From assembly GCA_027262695.1 (NCBI GenBank), contig GCA_027262695.1_4722.1: a DNA stretch of 64,000 bases, one strand, 5' to 3'. The stretch comes from a phage. Positions 1-64,000 of the stretch are shown piece after piece; position 1 is the stretch's first letter; every line of letters begins with the position of its first letter. A program made the position numbers and the translations under genes. The notes beneath the pieces are model-generated. The model did not search any database, had not been told where the DNA came from, and saw only the letters and a program-made list of their open reading frames with translations.

Positions 1-1451
1 AAATCAAACAAAGCTGGAAAGACGAATTACTTGCATTAGTTAACAGCAAAAACAGTTTACAACTGACATTAGACGACGTAAAGTTTGAATTAACCGAACC
101 GGTAAGCGAAGTGCCCGGAACGGTCGTTGTTACAATCAAACCGAACGATAATAGTCGCTACTTTAACGAGCAGTCTCTGACCTACGTCCGTCGAGACATT
201 GCTAAAAACTTCACCGGGATTCCGTTACGGGTTATCGTTAAGCAAGATACCGCTGTAAGGGATATCATCAATACGATTGCTGAACGTTACGGATTGGTAT
301 TTGACACAACCGTCGACTTCCTCGAATCAGAGCTGAATAAACAAATTACTTTCGCAGACACCGGTATTAAAGACGTTACTGTTCCGGTTGCAAACACGTC
401 TTATGTTTGGGCTGGTAATCTTCAGTTCAATATTGCGAACGATACGTTAAGCTTGATTACTATCATCAAGAAAACCAATCTTACGAATCTGGTTTATCTG
501 GATGGTGTTGAAGCTGACACATCGGGGTCGTTACTGTTAGCCACCACAGCACTTGTTAACGATAGCGTAAATAAGCCGATGGTTGAAAACGAAGATATCG
601 TCGATGAATTCTACAACGTTCTTAATGCTCTAGCCAAATATGGTGACATAACTGGCGATGAATTAAATGCCGCCTTACATGCGTACGATGCAGCAGAAAA
701 CAGGAATAAAACCACGGTAATAACTCTTGGTGATATCCAGTGTGTTGCAACAGAAAAAGACGATTGGGAAATTGGACGTTTACGCGGTCAGATGGTTCTC
801 GCGCTCAAATCCGATAAACAACCTGAGCGCGAGAACACGTTAAGGTTGTTTACGAATGGCGGTGACGTCTCACTAACGTTAAACACAATGAAAGATATCA
901 GTATCGATTGGGGTGATGGGAATAAAGTAACGTTGGATGCTGAAGAAAGATACGCGCACCACACATACGCCGACAATAACCAGTACCAAATCGAAATTGT
1001 GTCTCGTACGGACCCAGATGTGCTGCGACCAAATTATATTTCTGGGAGTGAGATAACCGAAGTAATTCACTGGGCTACTACTTCAACAATAGCTCTGAAT
1101 TTTGTTGGATGCGATAATTTAGCGACTGTTCCAGATGAGATCCCAACTTCGTGGACAACGTTGGACAGCATGTTTGAAAGTTGTACGAATTTGAATGATC
1201 CGTCTATCTCTAACTGGAATACAAGTAACATCACATCAATGAATGGTATGTTCGGCGGATGCACTAAATTTAACCAACCTTTAGCTGCCTGGGATGTCAG
1301 CTCAGTAACTGACATTGGTGGTATGTTTGTCGGATGTGACAGTTTTAACCAAGATTTAAGTGGGTGGCGATTACCGTCAGGAGTAAACCACACCAATTAC
1401 GATGATGGTGCTTTCTCGTGGCAGACGGAACATAAACCGACATTCCAGTAA
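1..1451 (+). CDS. BspA-type leucine-rich repeat (DUF285-like) protein, 5'-partial; possible adhesin or fibre component
   Basis: Frame is open from nt 3 to the stop at 1449-1451 with no upstream stop, so the gene starts before the window; the ORF track's GTG at 111 is probably internal. C-terminus carries tandem repeats 'SMFESCTNLNDPSISNWNTSNITSMNGMFGGCTKFNQPLAAWDVSSVTDIGGMFVGCDSFNQDLSGW' typical of the BspA/DUF285 family. Confidence 0.6.
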   Translation, partial: IKQSWKDELLALVNSKNSLQLTLDDVKFELTEPVSEVPGTVVVTIKPNDNSRYFNEQSLTYVRRDIAKNFTGIPLRVIVKQDTAVRDIINTIAERYGLVFDTTVDFLESELNKQITFADTGIKDVTVPVANTSYVWAGNLQFNIANDTLSLITIIKKTNLTNLVYLDGVEADTSGSLLLATTALVNDSVNKPMVENEDIVDEFYNVLNALAKYGDITGDELNAALHAYDAAENRNKTTVITLGDIQCVATEKDDWEIGRLRGQMVLALKSDKQPERENTLRLFTNGGDVSLTLNTMKDISIDWGDGNKVTLDAEERYAHHTYADNNQYQIEIVSRTDPDVLRPNYISGSEITEVIHWATTSTIALNFVGCDNLATVPDEIPTSWTTLDSMFESCTNLNDPSISNWNTSNITSMNGMFGGCTKFNQPLAAWDVSSVTDIGGMFVGCDSFNQDLSGWRLPSGVNHTNYDDGAFSWQTEHKPTFQ

Positions 1452-2797: not shown

Positions 2798-5059
2798 TTA
2801 CAATTCGAAATCTTCATCGATAACGCGTTGGGTTAGCACCTTGTCGCTGAAGAACTCCACCTTACGTTGATGGTATTTCCGATGTGCTTCAATCGACGTA
2901 CACACCAGATACCAGAACGTGGGTGTCATACCCTCGAACTTCCCTTTCAGCTGACGTAGTCGACCTAACACCTGAATGTTACCAGTTCTCGACCCCATCG
3001 CTAACGTCATGAACGTCATCACCAAGTCAGGAAGATCGATTCCTGTACCAGCCGATTTCACCGTTGTCACACTGATATCATTATCCAGTAACACCATGAA
3101 ATCTTCTTCAGCGGTATAAGGACCTATCTCCAACTCAGGGATACGTTCACTTAAGTAATGCGATAACGACTTGCACATATCAACGGTTGCACAATACACC
3201 AACATCTTCATGCCTTCCTGATATTGGTTCATGAAACCTTTGATAATAACCGTATAGATAAAGTTGAAATAGGCGAGTTTGAGTTGCTTATTCTTCATGA
3301 TAGACTGTTCGAATACCGTGTGAGAATAAGAACCTCCAAAGCCTTTGTATCGGACTTTATCCGTACTGCGTAGTCGATACGTCACCGCATTTACCGCGAT
3401 GTATTTCTTGTATTCACATTTCGCATAACGTGCTTCTTTCGGATACATCAAATACAGCATCCGCTCGATGAACGGATCGTCAGACACCGCCGTTGCCGAC
3501 AGATAAATGATTTCCGGAATATTCGCGTAACACTTCACTTTGAACAAGAAATGCAGAGCTTCGTGACATTCATCGTGGATTAACAATCCAATGCCTGTTT
3601 TCTCCCAGAACTCGACTGGATGGAAAACATAAGGTGCGACACAGTTGTTCTTTTCATAATCGGTTATATAACGCTGAAACATGTTCAGTGAGAATAACGC
3701 AATTTTGAAATCCAACTCACCTTGTTCTACCAGCGTCTGAAATTCCAACATGCTGTAACGAGGAATGTCGGGATGCGGTGGGTCAGACTGGGCTGTACCA
3801 CGTATCTCGATAACATCACCTGGTTCCATACCGAAGAAACTTAGCAGTGAGCTACGCCATCCAGGCATGTACCTCGGTGACAGAATGATGCCCGTCCGTA
3901 CACCACGTCGGAAGGTGATCTCCTGCGACATTGCGGTGTTGTGCGTGACGATATGGTCTTTAATAACATAAAGGCTTTCGTCGTTGTCCACCGTGATGCA
4001 ACGTGCCTTCGCTTTCACCGTCGGCACGATGCCGCCAATCGCTAAACCAGGAAGCGTGTTAACGGGAAGATCATCTGGAATCTCAATGCCGTCAGGAATA
4101 AGCTTAAGCAAATCGGAATGGTAAATTAATGTCTCCATCGTGTAACTATTGATGGGGCATTTATACGCGATTCCCCCTAACCGATAAGCCAACTCCCAGA
4201 CCTCGGTCATTATCTGCGAATCGGTGGTTCTGACCGCAAGGTGAGCCCACCCTTCTTCAACACGCAGTACGCAACGATCTTTGATGAGTTCTCTGAAACG
4301 ATCAAGACCCACGAGTTCTTTCGGTTCGTAAAGTCGGATTCTTACCGGACGAGATCGTGACGATCTGTCATTAAGACGTTCCATGATTTCACTCGTGCTG
4401 AGCACCTTGTCAGGATCCGTGCATTGCCAGAGATGATCACCACACGCTTCAACCATTCGTCCATCTTCAAAGAAGACAGCGTAAAGCTGAATATCGTCAT
4501 GATCAAAGATAGCAGTTACGTTCGTCGGTAAACCATCCGCGCCGATGACCTCATCACCCACCTGGAGCTCACCAATCGGCTTCCAACCGCTTGGAACCTT
4601 AACGGGTGTATGGAGAGCCAATGCTTTCCCAGACCCCGTGCCTGCGGTGTTTAGGCTCATTCTGAAAGGGGTATCCTTACCCCCATCCATGTACTCCAAC
4701 CATTCTTGCTGATCTTCACGCCACGGAAACTTCCAGTTCTTCACAAACTCCACTTCCTTACCTGGAACCGGATCGTGGTAAACGATTTCCAACCACTCCT
4801 TTCGAATTCCTCGAGAAAAGATAAAATCCAAAAACGACTTCAGCTGTTCACGAAGTAAGTAGACCTCGCTATAATCGCTTCTTGCTGCGGCGTAGGTGTT
4901 GATGGTATCGGTGACCATTCTCCGTGTACGAGGGTCGCGTCGTTTCCGTAGATGCAAACAACGGTCTCGAAGGTAATGGCCAATCAAATGGGCAAATCGA
5001 AGTCCGTATCCGCTCAGCTTCATGCCATGCGAGAAGACGTCGATACGAGCTAACTTCAT
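2798..5059 (-). CDS. SF2 DExH-box helicase precursor containing an intein
   Basis: Walker A 'AGTGSGK' followed after a 229 aa insertion by 'T'; motif II 'LLIHDECHEA', motif III 'LSAT', motif VI-like 'QVLGRLRQ'. The Arg-rich N-terminal 47 aa look non-coding-like, so the true start may be the internal Met near 4918. Confidence 0.75.
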   Translation of the reverse strand: MKLARIDVFSHGMKLSGYGLRFAHLIGHYLRDRCLHLRKRRDPRTRRMVTDTINTYAAARSDYSEVYLLREQLKSFLDFIFSRGIRKEWLEIVYHDPVPGKEVEFVKNWKFPWREDQQEWLEYMDGGKDTPFRMSLNTAGTGSGKALALHTPVKVPSGWKPIGELQVGDEVIGADGLPTNVTAIFDHDDIQLYAVFFEDGRMVEACGDHLWQCTDPDKVLSTSEIMERLNDRSSRSRPVRIRLYEPKELVGLDRFRELIKDRCVLRVEEGWAHLAVRTTDSQIMTEVWELAYRLGGIAYKCPINSYTMETLIYHSDLLKLIPDGIEIPDDLPVNTLPGLAIGGIVPTVKAKARCITVDNDESLYVIKDHIVTHNTAMSQEITFRRGVRTGIILSPRYMPGWRSSLLSFFGMEPGDVIEIRGTAQSDPPHPDIPRYSMLEFQTLVEQGELDFKIALFSLNMFQRYITDYEKNNCVAPYVFHPVEFWEKTGIGLLIHDECHEALHFLFKVKCYANIPEIIYLSATAVSDDPFIERMLYLMYPKEARYAKCEYKKYIAVNAVTYRLRSTDKVRYKGFGGSYSHTVFEQSIMKNKQLKLAYFNFIYTVIIKGFMNQYQEGMKMLVYCATVDMCKSLSHYLSERIPELEIGPYTAEEDFMVLLDNDISVTTVKSAGTGIDLPDLVMTFMTLAMGSRTGNIQVLGRLRQLKGKFEGMTPTFWYLVCTSIEAHRKYHQRKVEFFSDKVLTQRVIDEDFEL
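3938..4624 (-). mobile_element. Intein (229 aa, class-3-like: Ala1, block B Trp, block F Cys, block G Thr-His-Asn, +1 Thr) in the helicase P-loop
   Basis: Insertion lies exactly between Lys and Thr of GSGK|T. N-terminal block A-like 'ALALHTPV...GEL', block B-like 'EACGDHLW', block F-like 'ARCITVDNDESLYV', C-terminal 'IVTHN' then Thr. Removing it restores a canonical 'GTGSGKT' P-loop. No endonuclease-sized domain is evident. Confidence 0.6.
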
Positions 5060-7095
5060 AACGTGATTACATCCTCCGGTTTAGGTTCTTTACGCGGTAG
5101 AAGCATGTAGTCGATCGGATGATCTGGCTTCATGGTTGGGATATAACTGTTCGGGTTTTGGAACGCATCCAGTTGCTCTTGGTGAGCGAACTTCATACTC
5201 AAGGAGCGCATGTTCATGTTCTTCTTGAAGGTACTGAAATAACGAGTCGTTCCCTGTTTCGGCATGCGGTAATCTTTCGTGTGTGGTGAACGAATCATAC
5301 TCGCGTAGAGAATAACGTCCAGATGCGATAGATTCATTCGTAAACGTTGCGCACACAGACGATGCCAATAATACAGTACGTTGGCTACTTCTTCTGGTGT
5401 CGCTTCATCTTCCGAAAGGAATCCTGCACTGAACGAACCTTTCCCGAATTTGAATTCACGTTCGATTTCTTTTGCGTATTCCATCATGTTTTTATGGATG
5501 AGTGGCATCTGGAATAGCGTCCGTGAATTGTCCCAATGTTTCAAGTCGAAGATCACAATCCCGTCTGCTGTTACTTCCCAGCTATGGCGTTTGAGATAAC
5601 GGATAAACGCTTTGCTTGGTACAACAGGACGTCCACAGAAATCGAAATTGACTTTGAGTTTACGGTAGCTCTCATCTTTCCTGTCGTAAATCTCCATATC
5701 GCAAAGCGTCATGTTGAACAGACGTTGCGGGATAAGCGAACTGATCTCTTCCGCTTCAGCTACATCGTACAACATGTTCGCCAGACCGAGTTTCATCTTA
5801 ATCAGCACGTGTTTGCCTTTCAGCTCACGGGCTAATTTGATGTCGTTCATGTTCTGGCTGTAACGAAGGATATGTTGATATTCCGGCGGGATTGGTGACG
5901 TAGACACGGTGGACGAACCATCGTGATGTTTGGTCGAAAGAATGTTCTGGGTAACCTGTTGTGAACCTGTACGTGCTGAGCAGTCTCCGATGTTGTCGGT
6001 CAATGCAAAGTTATGGCTTAATTCACCATAGCACGTTGTACAGACACCAGCAGGATCAGAATGATGACAGTAACAAACGGAACGCATGTTCACAATGGTA
6101 CCGATCAATTCTTTCATGTGAGGCTGTATCGACAACAGCGAACCATCTTCACGTAAGATGAATCGACCGTGGAAACCTTTAAGATCGGTTTCATCACGTA
6201 TCGGCATCGGAATGGTTTCTCTGCTTCCACAGTCACCAGGGTGCAGACGCTGTACAACCGCCGTTGCGATTTGCAGCTCACGTCCGAAATATTCTGACTT
6301 CTTAATCTGCTCCTTGTTGAACAACAATGATTTTGCCGCAGAGCGACTTTCTTTCAAACTGTCTGGAAGCGAGATCAAGCCTGCTGCATACGACCGCATC
6401 ACTGGGTCACGGAAGATCTCCGAGTTGATATCGGTTAAGAAGCCACGCATCCCAATACACTGCAATACCTGTCCGATCGATACGTGTTCGGTTCTTACCG
6501 CACGTGCGATAGGGTTGGCATGCAATGTTTTATCGGTACTTAAAACTTTTGTTAGTTTCTTGTATGCGCTCTCAATACCTTCGCGGGTGGGTTCCGCTTC
6601 AGCGATGATTTTCTTCACTTCGGGATGTACGGTAATCTGATAAAAATCATCCGCACAGATGGTCGTTACGTATTCCTCCAACGCATACGTAAAGAAGTTA
6701 TAAACGTGGTTAAACATATCGAACAACGCTTTCCAGAGAACCTCACGATTCTCTTGCGGATACGCATACATGCATTGACGATAGGCTGCGCTTTGTAATG
6801 CAACGGAAGAACCTGCCGTAAACTTGCGTTTATCCACCAGGTTCTCTTTCGTTAACGGTGTCTCAGGATACATGCGATGTAAAGACCAATGCATGTAGCT
6901 AAAGAAAATGCGTCGCGCACGCAATTCATGAACACCATCGTCCATCTCGATATACACACGGTCATTAGGCTGTGCCCACTCGAACACCTCATCAACCGGC
7001 CAATGCATAAGCTCTCGCGCCCGTACACGGCGTTTCGTGGTGATCGTCTGTACTGTATTCATTATTTTTACTTTCCGATTAAGTGGTTTTATCAT
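5056..7095 (-). CDS. Multisubunit RNA polymerase beta-prime subunit, C-terminal fragment
   Basis: 'GMRG' (cf. E. coli beta-prime QLAGMRGLM); zinc-site-like 'RSVCYCHHSDPAGVCTTCYG' (cf. RSVVSCDTDFGVCAHCYG); trigger-loop-like 'GDCSARTGSQQVTQNILSTKHHDG'. Alternative start at Met12 (7060-7062). Confidence 0.7.
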   Translation of the reverse strand: MIKPLNRKVKIMNTVQTITTKRRVRARELMHWPVDEVFEWAQPNDRVYIEMDDGVHELRARRIFFSYMHWSLHRMYPETPLTKENLVDKRKFTAGSSVALQSAAYRQCMYAYPQENREVLWKALFDMFNHVYNFFTYALEEYVTTICADDFYQITVHPEVKKIIAEAEPTREGIESAYKKLTKVLSTDKTLHANPIARAVRTEHVSIGQVLQCIGMRGFLTDINSEIFRDPVMRSYAAGLISLPDSLKESRSAAKSLLFNKEQIKKSEYFGRELQIATAVVQRLHPGDCGSRETIPMPIRDETDLKGFHGRFILREDGSLLSIQPHMKELIGTIVNMRSVCYCHHSDPAGVCTTCYGELSHNFALTDNIGDCSARTGSQQVTQNILSTKHHDGSSTVSTSPIPPEYQHILRYSQNMNDIKLARELKGKHVLIKMKLGLANMLYDVAEAEEISSLIPQRLFNMTLCDMEIYDRKDESYRKLKVNFDFCGRPVVPSKAFIRYLKRHSWEVTADGIVIFDLKHWDNSRTLFQMPLIHKNMMEYAKEIEREFKFGKGSFSAGFLSEDEATPEEVANVLYYWHRLCAQRLRMNLSHLDVILYASMIRSPHTKDYRMPKQGTTRYFSTFKKNMNMRSLSMKFAHQEQLDAFQNPNSYIPTMKPDHPIDYMLLPRKEPKPEDVITL

Positions 7096-23118: not shown

Positions 23119-23356
23119 TTAGCATTGGTTATTGATTGCTTCTATTTCATCGATATACGGTTCTACGTCATCGCCCTCCACGAATTCGTTGAACCAACAG
23201 TCAATCGTTGAGATAACCGGTGACTGATGTTCACATTTCTTAGATACCTTAAACGGAACGTTGTTATCCATCATACCGAGTTCGGGTCGGAATCGCCCGA
23301 AATGTTTCGCAGTCCAAATGTCTGGGACGATATGGTTGTTCATAGCGTCTCCGTCG
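23119..23356 (-). CDS. RNAP beta-prime N-terminal subunit, downstream exon (boundary approximate)
   Basis: The frame upstream of the annotated Met reads 'SDGDAMNNHIVPDIW...GMMDNNVPF', matching beta-prime 'DGDQMAVHVPL...LMMSTNNILSP' immediately after NADFDGD. The 5' boundary depends on the 3' splice site (candidates 23356-23370). Confidence 0.55.
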
Positions 23357-24248
23357 CTGTTTGTCGACTATATCTTCATCTTCATTGCGAAGAGACTCTC
23401 GTTTGGGTTTGTGTTTAACAAAGCCTACTCTACTCAACATCGCGTCTTTCGATAGTCTGTGAGCACACATCTTAACGAATATTCGTGGGTTCCTACAGAC
23501 AGGTGAATATTCTTGTTGAGATGCTTCGCTGCGGATTATTCCCGTCCTACCTCTTTTACCATACCCAGTTCATTACGCTGGCCCTCATCGATGTCACCAT
23601 GATGAGTTGGTGTGTAGTCCGATTACAGAAACTTCCCGTCAATTAGAGAGTTTTAACTATGCTCCTGTTACCAGGAACCAGATCCCGACGGTATCAATAA
23701 ATCAACGTAAGTTATTGATTTAATTGAAAAAACTGAAATCTGCATTATCTTAATCTTCGATATGGTTCGCTAAGCCATATCCGCACATACGTGCAGCTTA
23801 CGTCTTTCACGTAAGAAGAGACTATATCTTTCACCCTCAGCTTTACCTGTTAGGGGCTCCCATTTCGGCGGTCGTTTGACCGGTGGTTTCCCACGCCGCT
23901 TGGCCCTAACGCCCGTGAGCGATAGTCGTTGAGCACATCTCCGTTCTGGAGACTTCGCTGCGGATTCCTCAATCCTTACTGCTTTTACCGTACCTGAATG
24001 ATTAGTTCAGCCCCACGCTCTGTTCCCAGGCATGGTTGGTGAGCAAGGCTCTAAGTAGGTTCCCGCTATTAGAGAGTTCCTCGTGACAGCATTACTGTGT
24101 CACTGGGCCTAATGACCCTTTCAAGATCATCACGCTTAACCCGATGGTGTTATCCTGCGGGTCGCGTTTAACCTTGGTGATTTCAAGACATTGGTTACTG
24201 CTACGGTCAAGTGATGGATTTCGAACAAAGCCACACACAATCCCATCG
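23357..24248 (-). ncRNA. Two tandem ORF-less group I intron cores inside the beta-prime N-terminal gene (boundaries approximate)
   Basis: Minus-strand elements for core 1: P AATAGCGGGAA (24060-24070), Q AATCCGCAGC (23957-23966), R GCTCAACGACTATC (23921-23934), S AAGATATAGTC (23820-23830). Core 2: P AATTGACGGGAAG (23632-23644), Q AATCCGCAGC (23528-23537), R GCTCACAGACTATC (23451-23464), S AAGATATAGTC (23366-23376). Stops in all frames; no ORF over 70 aa. Confidence 0.65.
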
Positions 24249-25357
24249 AACGGTGTATCAGCAATAAGCTCGTCATGCAGCTCGCTCATCATCGGATGAT
24301 AATTGCGGACATGCTCTGCAACGAACGCACGGGCTGCTCTTGGTGAATAACCACGATGGAATAACTTGGATTGGATATGTTCTTTATTGGTTAGTGTAAA
24401 TGGTGCGTACGGAAAATGCAGATGATAATAACGATGGTTTGCTGTTATCGAACTGATGACCGTACGTGTGGTGAATGGATGTAATGTACCTAATATGTTC
24501 TTACGTGTGATCCCTTTCTTCTTACCAATGAACTCATCGAAAATCGCCGAGTGATACTGCAACAGCTTCAATTGCACTTTCGCCATCCAGTTTTCTTTCT
24601 TTCTGGCGCTTAGTGGCGTGGTTGGATGATAGATGCTATTCAATGTTCCGATGGCGTCTATCGCACCTTCCATTTTGCTGTCAGCGTAACGTCCTGTTGG
24701 CGTGTTCTCGATCACGAACATCATGGCTGCAGGAAAGCTGATGTACTGACTGAAGAATTTATCCCGATGAATACGGATGAATTCGCGTAGCGTATCAACC
24801 TTCTCCATGTTCTTCGGTCCACGTAGTGTGGGTCCTTTATACAAGATCTCCATGATACGATCGAAGTTCTGTATAAAGCTATTTATACCGCGTCGTATTC
24901 CGAATACATCGAATTGCTGTTCCAGATAGTTCTTAAGTTCGATCGGTCGTTTTACGTTCGGACGGTAACTGGCATCAATGAGCCACGTCATCGTTTCAAA
25001 GCTTTTGATATTCAACTCGCTTGCCAGCACGAGATGGACCAACGGGTTAATGAACGCATCGATACCTTCCGGTACGCGCGCCCAGACCGTTGAACGAATC
25101 TCTTGTTCTGCTGGATAAGTGACAACCGTTTTACAGTTCGGGCACACCGTCCCTAATAACTCACCGCGATTATAGAAACCACAACCGCATTGCGGGGTGA
25201 TATCCAAGGTATCGCTCGAGTAAACACGGGTGATGAAACTGTTTAATTTCTTCTTCTCTTCCACGACCTTCGTATCATAATCGTTCAACAATATCGGCGT
25301 AAAAGGAAGTTCTGCGAGCTGTCTATCGAAACTGACGATATCGAGCATGATGGCCAT
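24249..25357 (-). CDS. RNAP beta-prime N-terminal subunit, upstream exon (3' boundary approximate)
   Basis: Zinc ribbon 'CGCGFYNRGELLGTVCPNC' matches the spacing of E. coli beta-prime 'CLCGKYKRLKHRGVICEKC'; 'HPMMSELHDELIAD' resembles 'HPLVCAAYNAD'. The ORF reads on into the intron ('TPFDGIVCG...') to a stop at 24092. Confidence 0.6.
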
Positions 25358-61550: not shown

Positions 61551-62696
61551 TTATTTGGCTTCGTTAAAATAAATATCAACGGCACGTTCCGTTGCGTAGA
61601 GAAGACCCAGATTCACGGTCCCTACCACTTCCGGTGAACCGATGATACGGTTAGCGATACTGGTGCCACTGAAGATAGCATCAAGGGTGTGCCCGTCTTC
61701 GGTTTTGTTCACACCATGACCCACGGAAGAGACAACGGATTTTGCCTGTGCTGCGAAGGTACCTTTATCCCCCATTCCCGCACCCAGGTCGTAACGCATG
61801 AAAATACGGATGGCGATCTGGTTCTCGCCTAACGGATTACCGTCTATTCTCACGTTACTGTTGTTGATGCGTCCCGTTGTTGCTTCGTTGAGTTTCAGTT
61901 CCTTAACGCGTTTAGCTCGCGCTTTATCCGCTTCACCCACAAGTGCTGCCATGGTTTCACTCATGTCTTCAATCTGGGCACGATACAACACATCGATCTG
62001 TACGACTTCACCATGCACGTCAGCCCGTGGGTTATACTGACTCATACGGCGTAACGCTTCAACCGCTTCCTGACTTTCATCGCTCAGATCGGTCGCAATC
62101 GGTTCTTCCAGTGTTGCCAGGATCGTCCGAGGTTCAACATGATCGCCGATTTTCACCAAACCACGAATGTTGAGATGAGCGTCAACAATGAGCGTACGAC
62201 TCTTAATCGATGGTGTTACGAGACGATCAGCGAGATTGTCGAAGATATACGAACTGTCCTCGTGCGTTTCTGGAATATCCAAAATACCAACCAAAGACAG
62301 AACGCCTGCGCGCCAAACCACCTGACCTGGGTTCCACCAATCCCGTTTGAAATAAAGACGATGGAATACCACTACATCCTGATCCTTAACGCGATCACCA
62401 ACTTTATAATCGGTAATGAGATCGTGAGGATAATACTTACCTGGTCCTTTCCCGATTATCGTACCGAGTTGGAAAACCTCTTCCCCTAATTCTGGATCGT
62501 CGTATTGTATCGTAAGCGCTGTTTTGGTGACCTTCTTCACAACACCATCGCCTTGAGCAGCTGCTGCGAAGAGTTTACCAACACGATGCGCGATAACAGT
62601 CTCACCACCTGTACGCCATGGTTGTACGTCGTAACCTTCAGCAGCTATCATGCGGTTGTGCTGTATACCTATAAATACGAGACGCTTTGGCGAAAT
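61551..62696 (-). CDS. RNAP beta subunit fragment, downstream exon (5' boundary approximate)
   Basis: The frame opened upstream of the annotated Met reads 'RLVFIGIQHNRMIAAEGYDVQPW' (cf. beta '[25 protein letters not shown]'); also 'HEDSSYIF' (cf. NFEDSI) and 'GAGMGDKGTFAAQA' (cf. [13 protein letters not shown]). Confidence 0.55.
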   Translation of the reverse strand: MSPKRLVFIGIQHNRMIAAEGYDVQPWRTGGETVIAHRVGKLFAAAAQGDGVVKKVTKTALTIQYDDPELGEEVFQLGTIIGKGPGKYYPHDLITDYKVGDRVKDQDVVVFHRLYFKRDWWNPGQVVWRAGVLSLVGILDIPETHEDSSYIFDNLADRLVTPSIKSRTLIVDAHLNIRGLVKIGDHVEPRTILATLEEPIATDLSDESQEAVEALRRMSQYNPRADVHGEVVQIDVLYRAQIEDMSETMAALVGEADKARAKRVKELKLNEATTGRINNSNVRIDGNPLGENQIAIRIFMRYDLGAGMGDKGTFAAQAKSVVSSVGHGVNKTEDGHTLDAIFSGTSIANRIIGSPEVVGTVNLGLLYATERAVDIYFNEAK

Positions 62697-63208
62697 CCAG
62701 CAAAATACAATTACTGTGCGTCTAGATTGTTCAGATAAGGTCGTTAATCTTATCCCGGTGGTGATGATAGGTGCATCACCAACCCGCTTGCGCTCTCACG
62801 CAAGAGCAGACTATATCACATCTCGTTTCAAACGGTGCTTCTTCAGCGCCTCAACGAGAGTTCACTTCTTCCCAGCGCATCCAGCGCCATTCTCTTATCC
62901 AAGGAGAATGCCTCACTCGAGGGGTACAGGGGGATGAATCCCTTAGTCGTTGAACCGTCACCCTAGAACGTTTCACAACGATCCTTAGGCGATTGGCTGC
63001 GGATTGTCCTTAAGCTATTATCTGTTTTATAACCATACCGTCTTTCTTTTCAGAATCCGTTTTGGTCGATAACAGCGATGGATGTCTTCGCAATTCAGTG
63101 AATCTCATCTACATGTCGCCATATAGACGGACCCTGCTATTAAAAGCGTTAATCATCTCTGTCGGCAGCAGGTACTGCAAGTGCCGATGTACTCATTATT
63201 GACGAGCT
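62697..63208 (-). ncRNA. ORF-less group I intron in the RNAP beta gene (boundaries approximate)
   Basis: Minus-strand P AATAGCAGGGT (63131-63141), Q AATCCGCAGC (62996-63005), R GGTTCAACGACTAAGG (62941-62956), S GATATAGTC (62809-62817), then three P9-like hairpins (CTTGCG/CGCAAG, GGTGATG/CATCACC, GATAAG/CTTATC). It separates two in-frame beta segments. Confidence 0.6.
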
Positions 63209-64000
63209 ACCATCCGTTTTCTCGTCGTAAGGTTTTGTTTCACCGTATACAGACACGATGTTTGCGTTAGGTGCAAGATAAGCAGAGATACCTACATCGC
63301 CACTGTCCTTCGTACCTTCAGATACCACACCGATGTCTGACTTGTCGTATTCACGATCGCGTGCGCGTCGAAGCGATGTTTTCGAACGACCCCCGATACC
63401 GGTCATCGTTGCTTCTTCACCCTGCTTGATATCCAACATCGGGTTGGTTTCATCGATGACAATAGAAGCACTGTCGTCAAGGATTTGGTTCCAAACGCTC
63501 ACCGGACTGATTGAGATCTTCTGTCGGTTGCCTTGGCTGCTGTTCTCGTTTTGACGAATAGCACCAACCAGATCCTTATACACCAACTCAGCGAACTTAT
63601 CGTACGTTTTGAAGCGCTGGTAGTTCACATCGTTCGTGTTCGGTGCCCAATCATCCAGAAGCAGTTCAACAGCACGTAATAACAACATGGCGAAATCAGT
63701 CGGTTCACCCATGTTCTGCAATAATGTACGACTTACCGGGTCGACGAAAAGACGCTCCATGAGTTCAAGTTCGCGAAGATGACGAACCTTAAGACCTGCA
63801 CCATCGACAACGTTAAAATAGATATCCCGATTGTCAAAAGCGCCGCGAGCGTAACCGATGTAATTACGGTATTCGTTAAATCCACCCAACAACAATGTCG
63901 TCATTCGATCATCTTTACTGAAGATCAAACTTTCATCGTCGAAGCTTACCGCGAATTCATCCGATGCTAAGCCCATACGAGAACCACGAACTACCGTACG
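63209..64000 (-). CDS. RNAP beta subunit fragment, upstream exon (5'-partial; continues beyond the window)
   Basis: 'GIGGRSKTSLRRARDREYDKSDIGVVSEGTKDSGDVGISAYLAPNANIVSVYGETKPYDEKTDG' aligns with E. coli beta '[64 protein letters not shown]'. The frame is open to nt 64000; after 'KTDG' it runs into the intron and stops at 63149. Confidence 0.6.

Follow-up and report, generated by a model that had tools for sequence, protein, structure and literature searches.

The class 3 inteins were defined on an intein that interrupts the P-loop of a phage helicase, a phage origin has been proposed for them, and their splicing pathway is known from work on the MP-Be DnaB, Dra Snf2, and Msm DnaBi1 inteins. 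Their signature positions are defined (PMC2807308), and the junction between the P-loop Lys and Thr/Ser of phage helicases and terminases is their usual habitat (PMC2807308; PMC5050341). The element described here, which interrupts a helicase of a giant Escherichia coli phage, resembles the class 3 prototype, MP-Be DnaB of mycobacteriophage Bethlehem, in being phage encoded and located in a helicase P-loop. Both also have a residue 1 that is no nucleophile, a WCT triplet (B:12, F:4, and G:5), a His-Asn end, and Thr+1 (PMC2807308). MP-Be DnaB, however, has 341 aa and a complete LAGLIDADG endonuclease, whereas only one degenerate lobe is found here, and the phage lineage and host differ. The "classic" P-loop inteins of phage terminases (TerL1-a) and of other ATPases occupy the same site, between the Walker A Lys and Thr, with the Thr doubling as the +1 residue (PMC5050341); the terminase is a different host protein family from the helicase of this locus.

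The solved mycobacterial DnaB-b (DnaBi1) class 3 mini-inteins, Msm DnaBi1 (6BS8) and Mch DnaB-1 (6RIX/6RIY), reside in RecA-fold DnaB, whereas the host here is an SF2 DExH helicase. Compared with the mycobacterial DnaBi1 mini-inteins, the element is longer (229 versus 139 to 145 aa), has Thr instead of Ser at +1, and carries a folded LAGLIDADG lobe of ~75 aa between blocks B and F, where those inteins have a short disordered linker; position B:7 is Cys61 here and Asp62 in Msm DnaBi1. Related inteins are found in Pseudomonas phage EL (gp040) and Erwinia phage Rebecca (gp251), whose orthologous helicases are likewise syntenic, beside an RNA polymerase beta subunit gene. Their inteins share the identical site (G-x-G-K, then T), the WCT/THN signature, and 35 to 36% identity. 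The EL intein keeps, as here, only the second endonuclease lobe, but it starts with Met; the Rebecca intein (345 aa) has the two LAGLIDADG motifs, LGDGG and LLDTDG, and could still be capable of homing. Both genes are annotated in their records solely as helicases, with no mention of an intein. InBase presumably lists the PhiEL inteins.

The window analyzed is a stretch of 64,000 nucleotides from a Goslar-like, nucleus-forming jumbo phage of E. coli. Its helicase gene, orthologous to Goslar gp164 ("DNA helicase"), has the RNA polymerase beta subunit gene (5056 to 7095, minus strand) directly upstream. The two helicase genes share 92% nucleotide identity with a 687-bp gap, and the break in the DNA falls precisely at the boundary of the Lys codon AAA and the Thr codon ACN. 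At the protein level, the exteins are 99% identical to the 524-aa Goslar gp164, and a single alignment gap of exactly 229 aa opens between K145 and T375, a result that chance could not remotely explain. The first-pass annotation had placed an insertion at 3938 to 4624, in the helicase Walker A motif; translation of this segment confirmed these coordinates on the minus strand, with a stop-free frame from ALALHTPV through DHIVTHN, TAGTGSGK before it and TAMSQ after it, that is, Walker A GTGSGK, then 229 aa, then T. The insertion is in frame and precise, it occupies a conserved site, and intein-less homologues exist. The insertion, its exact boundaries, and its signature residues are observed here directly (Table 1). 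At least 15 contigs encode the identical 753-aa protein, and four of its occurrences come from four different metagenome samples; its recovery from several samples excludes an assembly artifact.

Table 1. Features of the interrupted helicase gene, in window coordinates
Feature	Position	Strand	Description	Basis
Helicase precursor gene	2798..5059	(-)	753 aa, 86.9 kDa	ORF list
N-extein	4625..5059	(-)	aa 1-145; C-terminal residues GTGSGK (Walker A)	Alignment with Goslar gp164 and DNA junction
Walker A GTGSGK codons	4625-4642	(-)		
Class 3 mini-intein	3938..4624	(-)	229 aa, 25.7 kDa; protein residues 146-374	
Block A	4586..4624	(-)	ALALHTPVKVPSG; non-nucleophilic Ala1 at 4622-4624	
Block B	4421..4462	(-)	GRMVEACGDHLWQC	Positions per PMC2807308
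His64	4433-4435	(-)	B:10	
Trp66	4427-4429	(-)	B:12, "W" of WCT	
LAGLIDADG homing endonuclease remnant	4097..4315	(-)	One alpha-beta-beta-alpha-beta-beta lobe, intein aa ~104-176	
Block F	3962..4009	(-)	KARCITVDNDESLYVI	
Cys209	3998-4000	(-)	F:4, "C" of WCT; predicted initiating nucleophile	
Block G	3935..3958	(-)	DHIVTHN, then T	Junction fixed by Goslar alignment
Asn229	3938-3940	(-)	Last intein residue	
Thr+1	3935-3937	(-)	First C-extein residue, also Walker A Thr	
C-extein	2798..3937	(-)	aa 375-753 and stop codon	
DECH (motif II) codons	3563-3574	(-)	In C-extein	
Empty site in Goslar gp164			…GGGTCTGGTAAA directly followed by ACAGCCATGTCG…	

The proposed identity of the host protein as an SF2 DExH helicase was borne out by its motifs and by the match of the precursor to phrog_16 DNA helicase among the PHROG profiles (E value, 2.5e-24). 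Besides DECH, the C-extein carries SAT (motif III) and QVLGRLRQ (motif VI), and these are joined by GTGSGKT once the protein is spliced. Matches to Pfam ResIII, DEAD, and Helicase_C and to NCBIfam XPB all stay below the cut-offs, indicating that the host protein is a divergent member of SF2 DExH. The helicase is conserved across 289 jumbo-phage records, and it is uninterrupted in 165 phage records.

The splicing blocks follow the class 3 pattern. Block A pairs residue for residue with ALALDTPLPTPSGW of Msm DnaBi1 in the phmmer alignment, and its P11 and G13 never vary in alignment A4. H64 and W66 of block B are invariant in both A4 and A5 (the alignment rebuilt without the EL and Rebecca rows), as is Cys209, which lies in KARCITVDN and pairs with Cys118 in RCVEVDN of 6BS8. 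Position B:7, where class 1 inteins have Thr, is Cys61; the residue there varies and can be dispensed with in MP-Be DnaB (PMC2807308). The intein ends with Thr227 at G:5, the antepenultimate residue and the "T" of WCT, followed by His228 and Asn229, and all three are invariant in A4 and A5. The C-terminal Asn is followed by Thr as the +1 nucleophile, the WCT triplet (Trp at B:12, Cys at F:4, Thr at G:5) is complete, and position 1 is Ala, with no Cys, Ser, or Thr nucleophile. The strings EACGDHLW, ARCITV, and IVTHN-T, from which class 3 had been suggested, are all present in the translation, and this assignment is supported by Ala1, WCT, His-Asn, Thr+1, the Hint prediction, and solved class 3 inteins as the best matches.

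Class 1 is ruled out by Ala at position 1 in place of the Cys, Ser, or Thr that starts the N-S/N-O acyl shift. The element does not fit class 2 (KlbA type) either, with its WCT triplet and Thr at +1; class 2 inteins lack the triplet and typically have Cys+1 (PMC2807308). A route other than that of class 3, such as a class 2-like direct attack by Thr+1 in which Cys209 plays only a supporting role, appears very improbable: although Ala1 is common to class 2 (KlbA) inteins, the complete WCT triplet together with Thr+1 argues against such a route, and the nearest sequence and structural relatives experimentally need the block F Cys (PMC6195587).

Homology and predicted structure point to the same family. 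A phmmer search of PDB chains retrieved the class 3 DnaB inteins 6RIX, 6RIY, and 6BS8 at an E value of 1.3e-13, and both blocks A/B and blocks F/G align with these solved inteins. The AF2 model has a Hint fold at a pLDDT of 95.6, and its best structural matches are all inteins. Profile searches, proposed earlier as a check, do not decide the matter by themselves: the NCBIfam model TIGR01443 intein_Cterm scored 16.2 bits in a borderline pass of its 15.6 cut-off, whereas the Pfam Hint models remained subthreshold (Hom_end_hint, 16.9 bits versus a cut-off of 32.1; Hint_2, 15.1 versus 28.4). The subthreshold Pfam matches would suit an ordinary, lineage-specific helicase insertion domain without a Hint fold, the scenario named in the first-pass annotation as refuting its reading. 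We reject it, leaving it hardly any probability at all, since the insert is absent from a 99%-identical orthologue (Goslar), matches solved inteins by phmmer, and has a confidently predicted Hint fold with inteins as its best structural matches.

A word-indexed protein search with the intein proved too insensitive, returning one relative in part (129 aa at 75% identity, in a Salmonella assembly), and the exhaustive phmmer search yielded 10,086 homologues. From the best 150 of these proteins, 215 inteins were cut; H-x-W is present in 212 of them, the block F Cys in 214, and a THN end in 209. Thr or Ser occupies +1 in 206 of the 215, and 121 lie directly after "GK"; relatives behind a P-loop "GK" would thereby number in the thousands. 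The N-terminal part of the intein also matches PHROG profiles for terminase, primase, and DnaC, a consequence of inteins of this kind in members of those families. No second intein of the same family was found in the 64,000-nt window by tblastn with the intein.

The element is a mini-intein with a homing endonuclease remnant. It had been described as small and as showing no obvious homing endonuclease domain; the size of 229 aa holds, but one degenerate LAGLIDADG lobe is kept. The first (block C) lobe, which is present in the intein of Rebecca, is deleted here, and the motif of the remaining one has decayed to FRELIKDRC, with Arg117 replacing the catalytic Asp; Arg also occupies the catalytic position in the closest relative, P0002, a second Goslar-like helicase. 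An active two-lobe LAGLIDADG endonuclease is rejected on the basis of the single lobe and Arg117. The remnant is folded at high confidence in the predicted structure. The central third of the intein is the surviving second lobe, and with the partner lobe and the catalytic acid lost, autonomous homing should no longer be possible.

P0002, whose intein is 83% identical, served as the reference for dN/dS. In this one pairwise comparison of short segments (36 to 117 codons), the two Hint halves gave nearly equal dN/dS values (N-terminal, 0.067; C-terminal, 0.066), the central lobe a value of 0.32, and the exteins values of 0.01 to 0.04. The splicing halves thus appear to be under strong purifying selection, and low values of ~0.07 in the Hint halves around a relaxed middle are the pattern expected under selection for splicing. 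A decayed, nonsplicing intein pseudogene or a domesticated insertion domain, with the helicase either inactive or working with the 229 aa retained, is therefore decidedly unlikely. Such decay is documented for the class 3-like intein Arsp-FB24 Arth_1007 (PMC3196547), and the clearly degenerate homing endonuclease marks an aging element; against this, the catalytic and WCT residues are all intact and invariant among relatives, the Hint halves are far more constrained than the noncatalytic middle, and the exteins are still under very strong purifying selection. Moreover, the insert parts the Walker A Lys from its Thr, and a P-loop that stayed split should carry a high cost, given that 289 phage records conserve this helicase.

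Base composition gave no sign of a recent foreign origin (GC of 0.47 to 0.51 for the intein and 0.43 to 0.52 for the flanks), and no homing coconversion tract was found at the intein flanks. Sites beside the intein are common to the intein-less Goslar allele and not to the intein-plus P0002. The three alleles (the intein-plus allele described here, Goslar, and P0002) form a recombination mosaic, in which gain and precise loss of the intein are indistinguishable.

Taken as a class 3 mini-intein between the Lys and Thr of the helicase P-loop, the element is very probably self-splicing. We infer splicing from the intact catalytic residues and the constraint on the Hint halves, and the signature residues and homology suggest the class 3 route. 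Translation would give the 86.9-kDa precursor, whose split P-loop should leave it unable to bind ATP; the intein would then fold into the Hint domain and excise itself. By analogy with characterized class 3 inteins, Cys209 would attack the Lys145-Ala146 bond, assisted by His64 and Trp66, to yield a thioester-branched intermediate, from which the N-extein would pass to Thr+1 by transesterification. Cyclization of Asn229, aided by His228, would free the 25.7-kDa intein, and an O-to-N acyl shift would leave a 61.2-kDa helicase with its native GTGSGKT loop restored. The intein would persist because helicase function needs its splicing.

There is also a small chance that the intein is a conditional switch that controls an essential helicase through a Cys disulfide or zinc site, with the LAGLIDADG lobe kept for a new role. 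In Msm DnaBi1, Cys48 and Cys118 form a redox trap (PMC6195587); by analogy, Cys61 (B:7) and Cys68, which would lie close to the nucleophile Cys209, might take part in a reversible disulfide or in zinc binding. The single lobe, confidently folded at a dN/dS of 0.32, may be retained, for example, for DNA binding. With such a switch, the helicase would stay inactive until the infected cell offers conditions that allow splicing.

The element is a genuine class 3 intein and an ordinary addition to a large, well-described family at a classic insertion site. Precomputed Pfam results on the public contigs contain nothing for the 753-aa product, and the curated Pfam models miss the intein; with the intein missed by annotation, the mature helicase is predicted to have 524 aa and not 753. 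Such a compact class 3 scaffold, with its confidently predicted fold and its Thr+1, might appeal to protein engineers. The intein-minus Goslar and the intein-plus source phage, with exteins 99% identical, constitute a natural pair for measuring the cost or benefit of an intein, and the pair also suits studies of how an intein homes or is lost in a nucleus-forming jumbo phage tractable in E. coli. With Goslar-like phages, EL, Rebecca, and many metagenomic orthologues as carriers, the P-loop of the chimallivirus helicase is a recurrent intein site.

The insertion lies in a gene on the minus strand, and the boundaries proposed for it in the first-pass annotation are right: its 229 residues are translated without stops, with ...NTAGTGSGK immediately before them and TAMSQEITF... 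immediately after. Escherichia phage vB_EcoM_Goslar, with which the window shares gene order at 86-92% nucleotide identity (collinear), is a jumbo phage with genes for a nuclear shell protein and for the tubulin PhuZ; its intein-less orthologue gp164 ("DNA helicase," 524 aa) matches the helicase gene as two pieces, with 687 bp skipped. At the protein level the exteins (the host-protein parts flanking the intein) are 99% identical to gp164, the sole gap being the 229 aa that separate K145 from T375, and in the DNA the Lys codon AAA is the last before the break and the Thr codon ACN the first after it; excision in any shifted register fails to reproduce the Goslar sequence, which makes the intein boundaries unambiguous. 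Contigs encoding an identical 753-aa protein number at least 15 and derive from at least four different samples, which rules out an assembly artefact. Once the 229 aa are taken out, the host protein displays Walker A GTGSGKT, motif II DECH, motif III SAT, and motif VI QVLGRLRQ; it matches PHROG family 16 ("DNA helicase") at E 2.5e-24, and its matches to Pfam ResIII, DEAD, and Helicase_C and to NCBIfam XPB are all below cut-offs. This combination identifies it as a divergent SF2 DExH helicase, in agreement with the initial call. The precursor is predicted to weigh 86.9 kDa, and splicing would yield a 61.2-kDa helicase and a 25.7-kDa intein.

Class 3 inteins by definition begin with a residue other than Cys, Ser, or Thr and carry a WCT triplet composed of Trp at B:12 (two residues past the B:10 His), Cys at F:4, and Thr at G:5; their +1 residue is usually Thr or Ser, and most known members interrupt the ATPase P-loop of a helicase-like protein (PMC2807308; PMC5050341). 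The window intein has Ala1, His64-Leu65-Trp66, Cys209 (in KARCITV), Thr227-His228-Asn229, and Thr+1, so that all class 3 features are present. The first-pass annotation had recognized the Trp/Cys/Thr signature but placed the T of the triplet at Thr+1, whereas the defining residue is Thr227 (both are present). Its class 3 call is borne out by a phmmer search against all PDB chains, which retrieved the class 3 DnaB inteins 6RIX and 6RIY (Mycobacterium chimaera) and 6BS8 (M. smegmatis) at E 1e-13, the alignment taking in ALAL-TP-P-GW at the start and RC--VDN--LY/THN at the end. The AlphaFold2 model, for which 27 related inteins formed the input alignment, has a mean pLDDT of 95.6 and a pTM of 0.90 with zero low-confidence segments, and Foldseek ranked class 3 DnaB inteins at the top of the PDB (target-normalised TM-score, 0.81-0.86). 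Every class 3 feature looked for, at the level of sequence or structure, was found; by mechanism and family membership the insert can be assigned to class 3, with splicing through an obligate block F Cys and a branched intermediate at block F predicted. Unlike the solved mycobacterial DnaBi1 inteins, it resides in an SF2 phage helicase, is followed by Thr at +1, carries Cys61 at block B:7, keeps an endonuclease lobe predicted to be folded, and has a different length (229 aa). By analogy with Msm DnaBi1, the M. smegmatis intein (PMC6195587), it might act as a redox/zinc conditional switch of the helicase via Cys209 and Cys61/Cys68, with the retained lobe possibly newly functional, but we consider this very improbable.

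The 345-aa intein of Erwinia phage Rebecca has both LAGLIDADG motifs (AMLGDGGF and LLQGLLDTDGT); aligned to it, the inteins of the window and of Pseudomonas phage EL wholly lack the first lobe and keep the second. In the window intein the motif has degenerated to FRELIKDRC, with Arg117 at the catalytic Asp position; Arg likewise occupies this position in the closest relative, P0002 (a metagenomic Goslar-like helicase of 753 aa), and no acid is conserved in more distant mini-inteins. Missing one lobe and with its motif degenerate, the element is a mini-intein whose remaining endonuclease part is dead, and it is probably incapable of unaided homing. The insert had been described as small and devoid of an obvious homing-endonuclease domain, which holds for its size and for an intact enzyme but not for the one degenerate lobe retained. 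Compared with the class 3 prototype, the MP-Be DnaB intein of mycobacteriophage Bethlehem, half of the endonuclease has been lost. All mutagenesis-sensitive residues of MP-Be DnaB have conservative counterparts (MP-Be Lys319, Cys320, Ile321, Asp324, and Phe330 equal Arg208, Cys209, Ile210, Asp213, and Tyr219). The P0002 intein, inserted at the same site, is 83% identical to that of the window. In one pairwise Nei-Gojobori comparison of the two genes, over short segments, dN/dS was 0.067 and 0.066 for the N- and C-terminal Hint halves, 0.32 for the central LAGLIDADG lobe, and 0.02-0.04 for the exteins. Tightly constrained catalytic halves and a relaxed remnant are the pattern that selection for splicing predicts, and together with the conserved residues they lend indirect support to an intein that still splices. 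The intein of P0002 also marks a second Goslar-like lineage (L009; ENA ERZ16268247 scaffold_7779, 3001-5262). A 129-aa fragment recorded as a Salmonella Enteritidis hypothetical protein on a 454-bp contig (P0001 entry), 75% identical to the central part of the intein, is probably phage DNA within a bacterial assembly.

Group I introns lie elsewhere in the window. One, which splits an RNA polymerase beta-type subunit gene, scores 49.2 bits against Rfam RF00028, just below the gathering score of 50, and shares 92% identity with the annotated Intron_gpI of Goslar; its upstream ORF matches positions 1-414 of phrog_2987 and the 74-aa ORF positions 426-475. The window lacks a Goslar stretch of ~1.4 kb with the HNH endonuclease gp186, which in Goslar separates the intron from the downstream exon, and ~22 nt upstream of the intron is an insertion not in Goslar, overlapped by a weak group I match (RF00028, 26.9 bits, E 2e-4), which may represent a tandem second intron of that gene. 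Another intron (RF00028, 51 bits, above the gathering score) interrupts a different RNA polymerase beta subunit gene; of the two ORFs, one spans phrog_3148 positions 778-1050 and the other 1065-1422. Between flanks of 87-92% identity, a further segment fails to align by blastn with its counterpart in Goslar gp161, a BspA-family leucine-rich-repeat protein; it is a part of a putative surface protein that has been replaced locally or is hypervariable.

Coordinates of the intein, its host gene, and other features of the window
Feature	Position	Strand	Remark
Segment within gp161 counterpart	548-1205		
Helicase precursor ORF	2798-5059	-	753 aa, ORF list
Intein	3938-4624	-	stop-free translation, 229 aa, ALALHTPVKVPSGW...KARCITVDNDESLYVIKDHIVTHN
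ORF downstream of first intron	23119-23343	-	
First group I intron	23357-23726	-	
Insertion relative to Goslar	23749-24116		368 bp
Weak group I intron match	23798-24135	-	
ORF upstream of first intron	24092-25357	-	
ORF flanking second intron	61551-62651	-	
Second group I intron	62787-63153	-	
ORF flanking second intron	63149-63976	-	

A phmmer search run exhaustively against 1.84 billion representative proteins (E<=1e-3) yielded 10,086 matches to the window intein. Among 215 inteins excised, some at approximate boundaries, from the best 150 of these proteins, H-x-W in block B is found in 212, the block F Cys in 214, and the THN ending in 209, and the +1 residue is Thr (154), Ser (52), or Cys (9); position 1 is free of Cys, Ser, and Thr in 199/215 (Ala in 119) and "GK" immediately precedes the intein in 121/215. 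These inteins are uniform, and that of the window lies nested within an entirely class 3 clade. P0023, a 1278-aa ClpA/ClpB-like AAA+ protein from a metagenome library, has both of its Walker A loops interrupted by a class 3 intein of this family (GVGK|AQPL...THN|T), and many other top matches likewise contain two per protein. By tblastn, relatives occur in 551 phage records, ~300 of them mycobacteriophages and many others jumbo phages; a phage origin of class 3 inteins was reportedly proposed by Tori and Perler in 2011, as cited by later papers. Jumbo phage reviews touch on inteins only in general terms, and our literature search found no paper describing the window intein in Goslar-like phages.

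A sliding-window comparison of the window, Goslar, and P0002 alleles gives a recombination mosaic: immediately downstream of the intein the allele closest to the window is that of intein-less Goslar, most of the N-extein of P0002 is nearly identical to that of Goslar, and the bases directly flanking the insertion are common to the window and Goslar, not to both intein-plus alleles. No co-conversion tract is visible in this comparison, and recent gain and precise loss are therefore indistinguishable; nor is the intein set apart by GC content. The syntenic helicases EL gp040 and Rebecca gp251, annotated merely as helicases in public records, each have a gene for an RNA polymerase beta subunit as neighbour, like the helicase of the window, and are interrupted by related inteins at the identical G-x-G-K|T position, the "classic" P-loop site lying between Lys and Thr of Walker A (PMC5050341). 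The phmmer matches also include many metagenomic orthologues showing -LQTGxGK|A...THN|T, and the helicase, present in 289 phage records, is contiguous in 165 of them. Intein insertion thus recurs at the helicase P-loop, where the intein is polymorphic even among phages that are almost identical.
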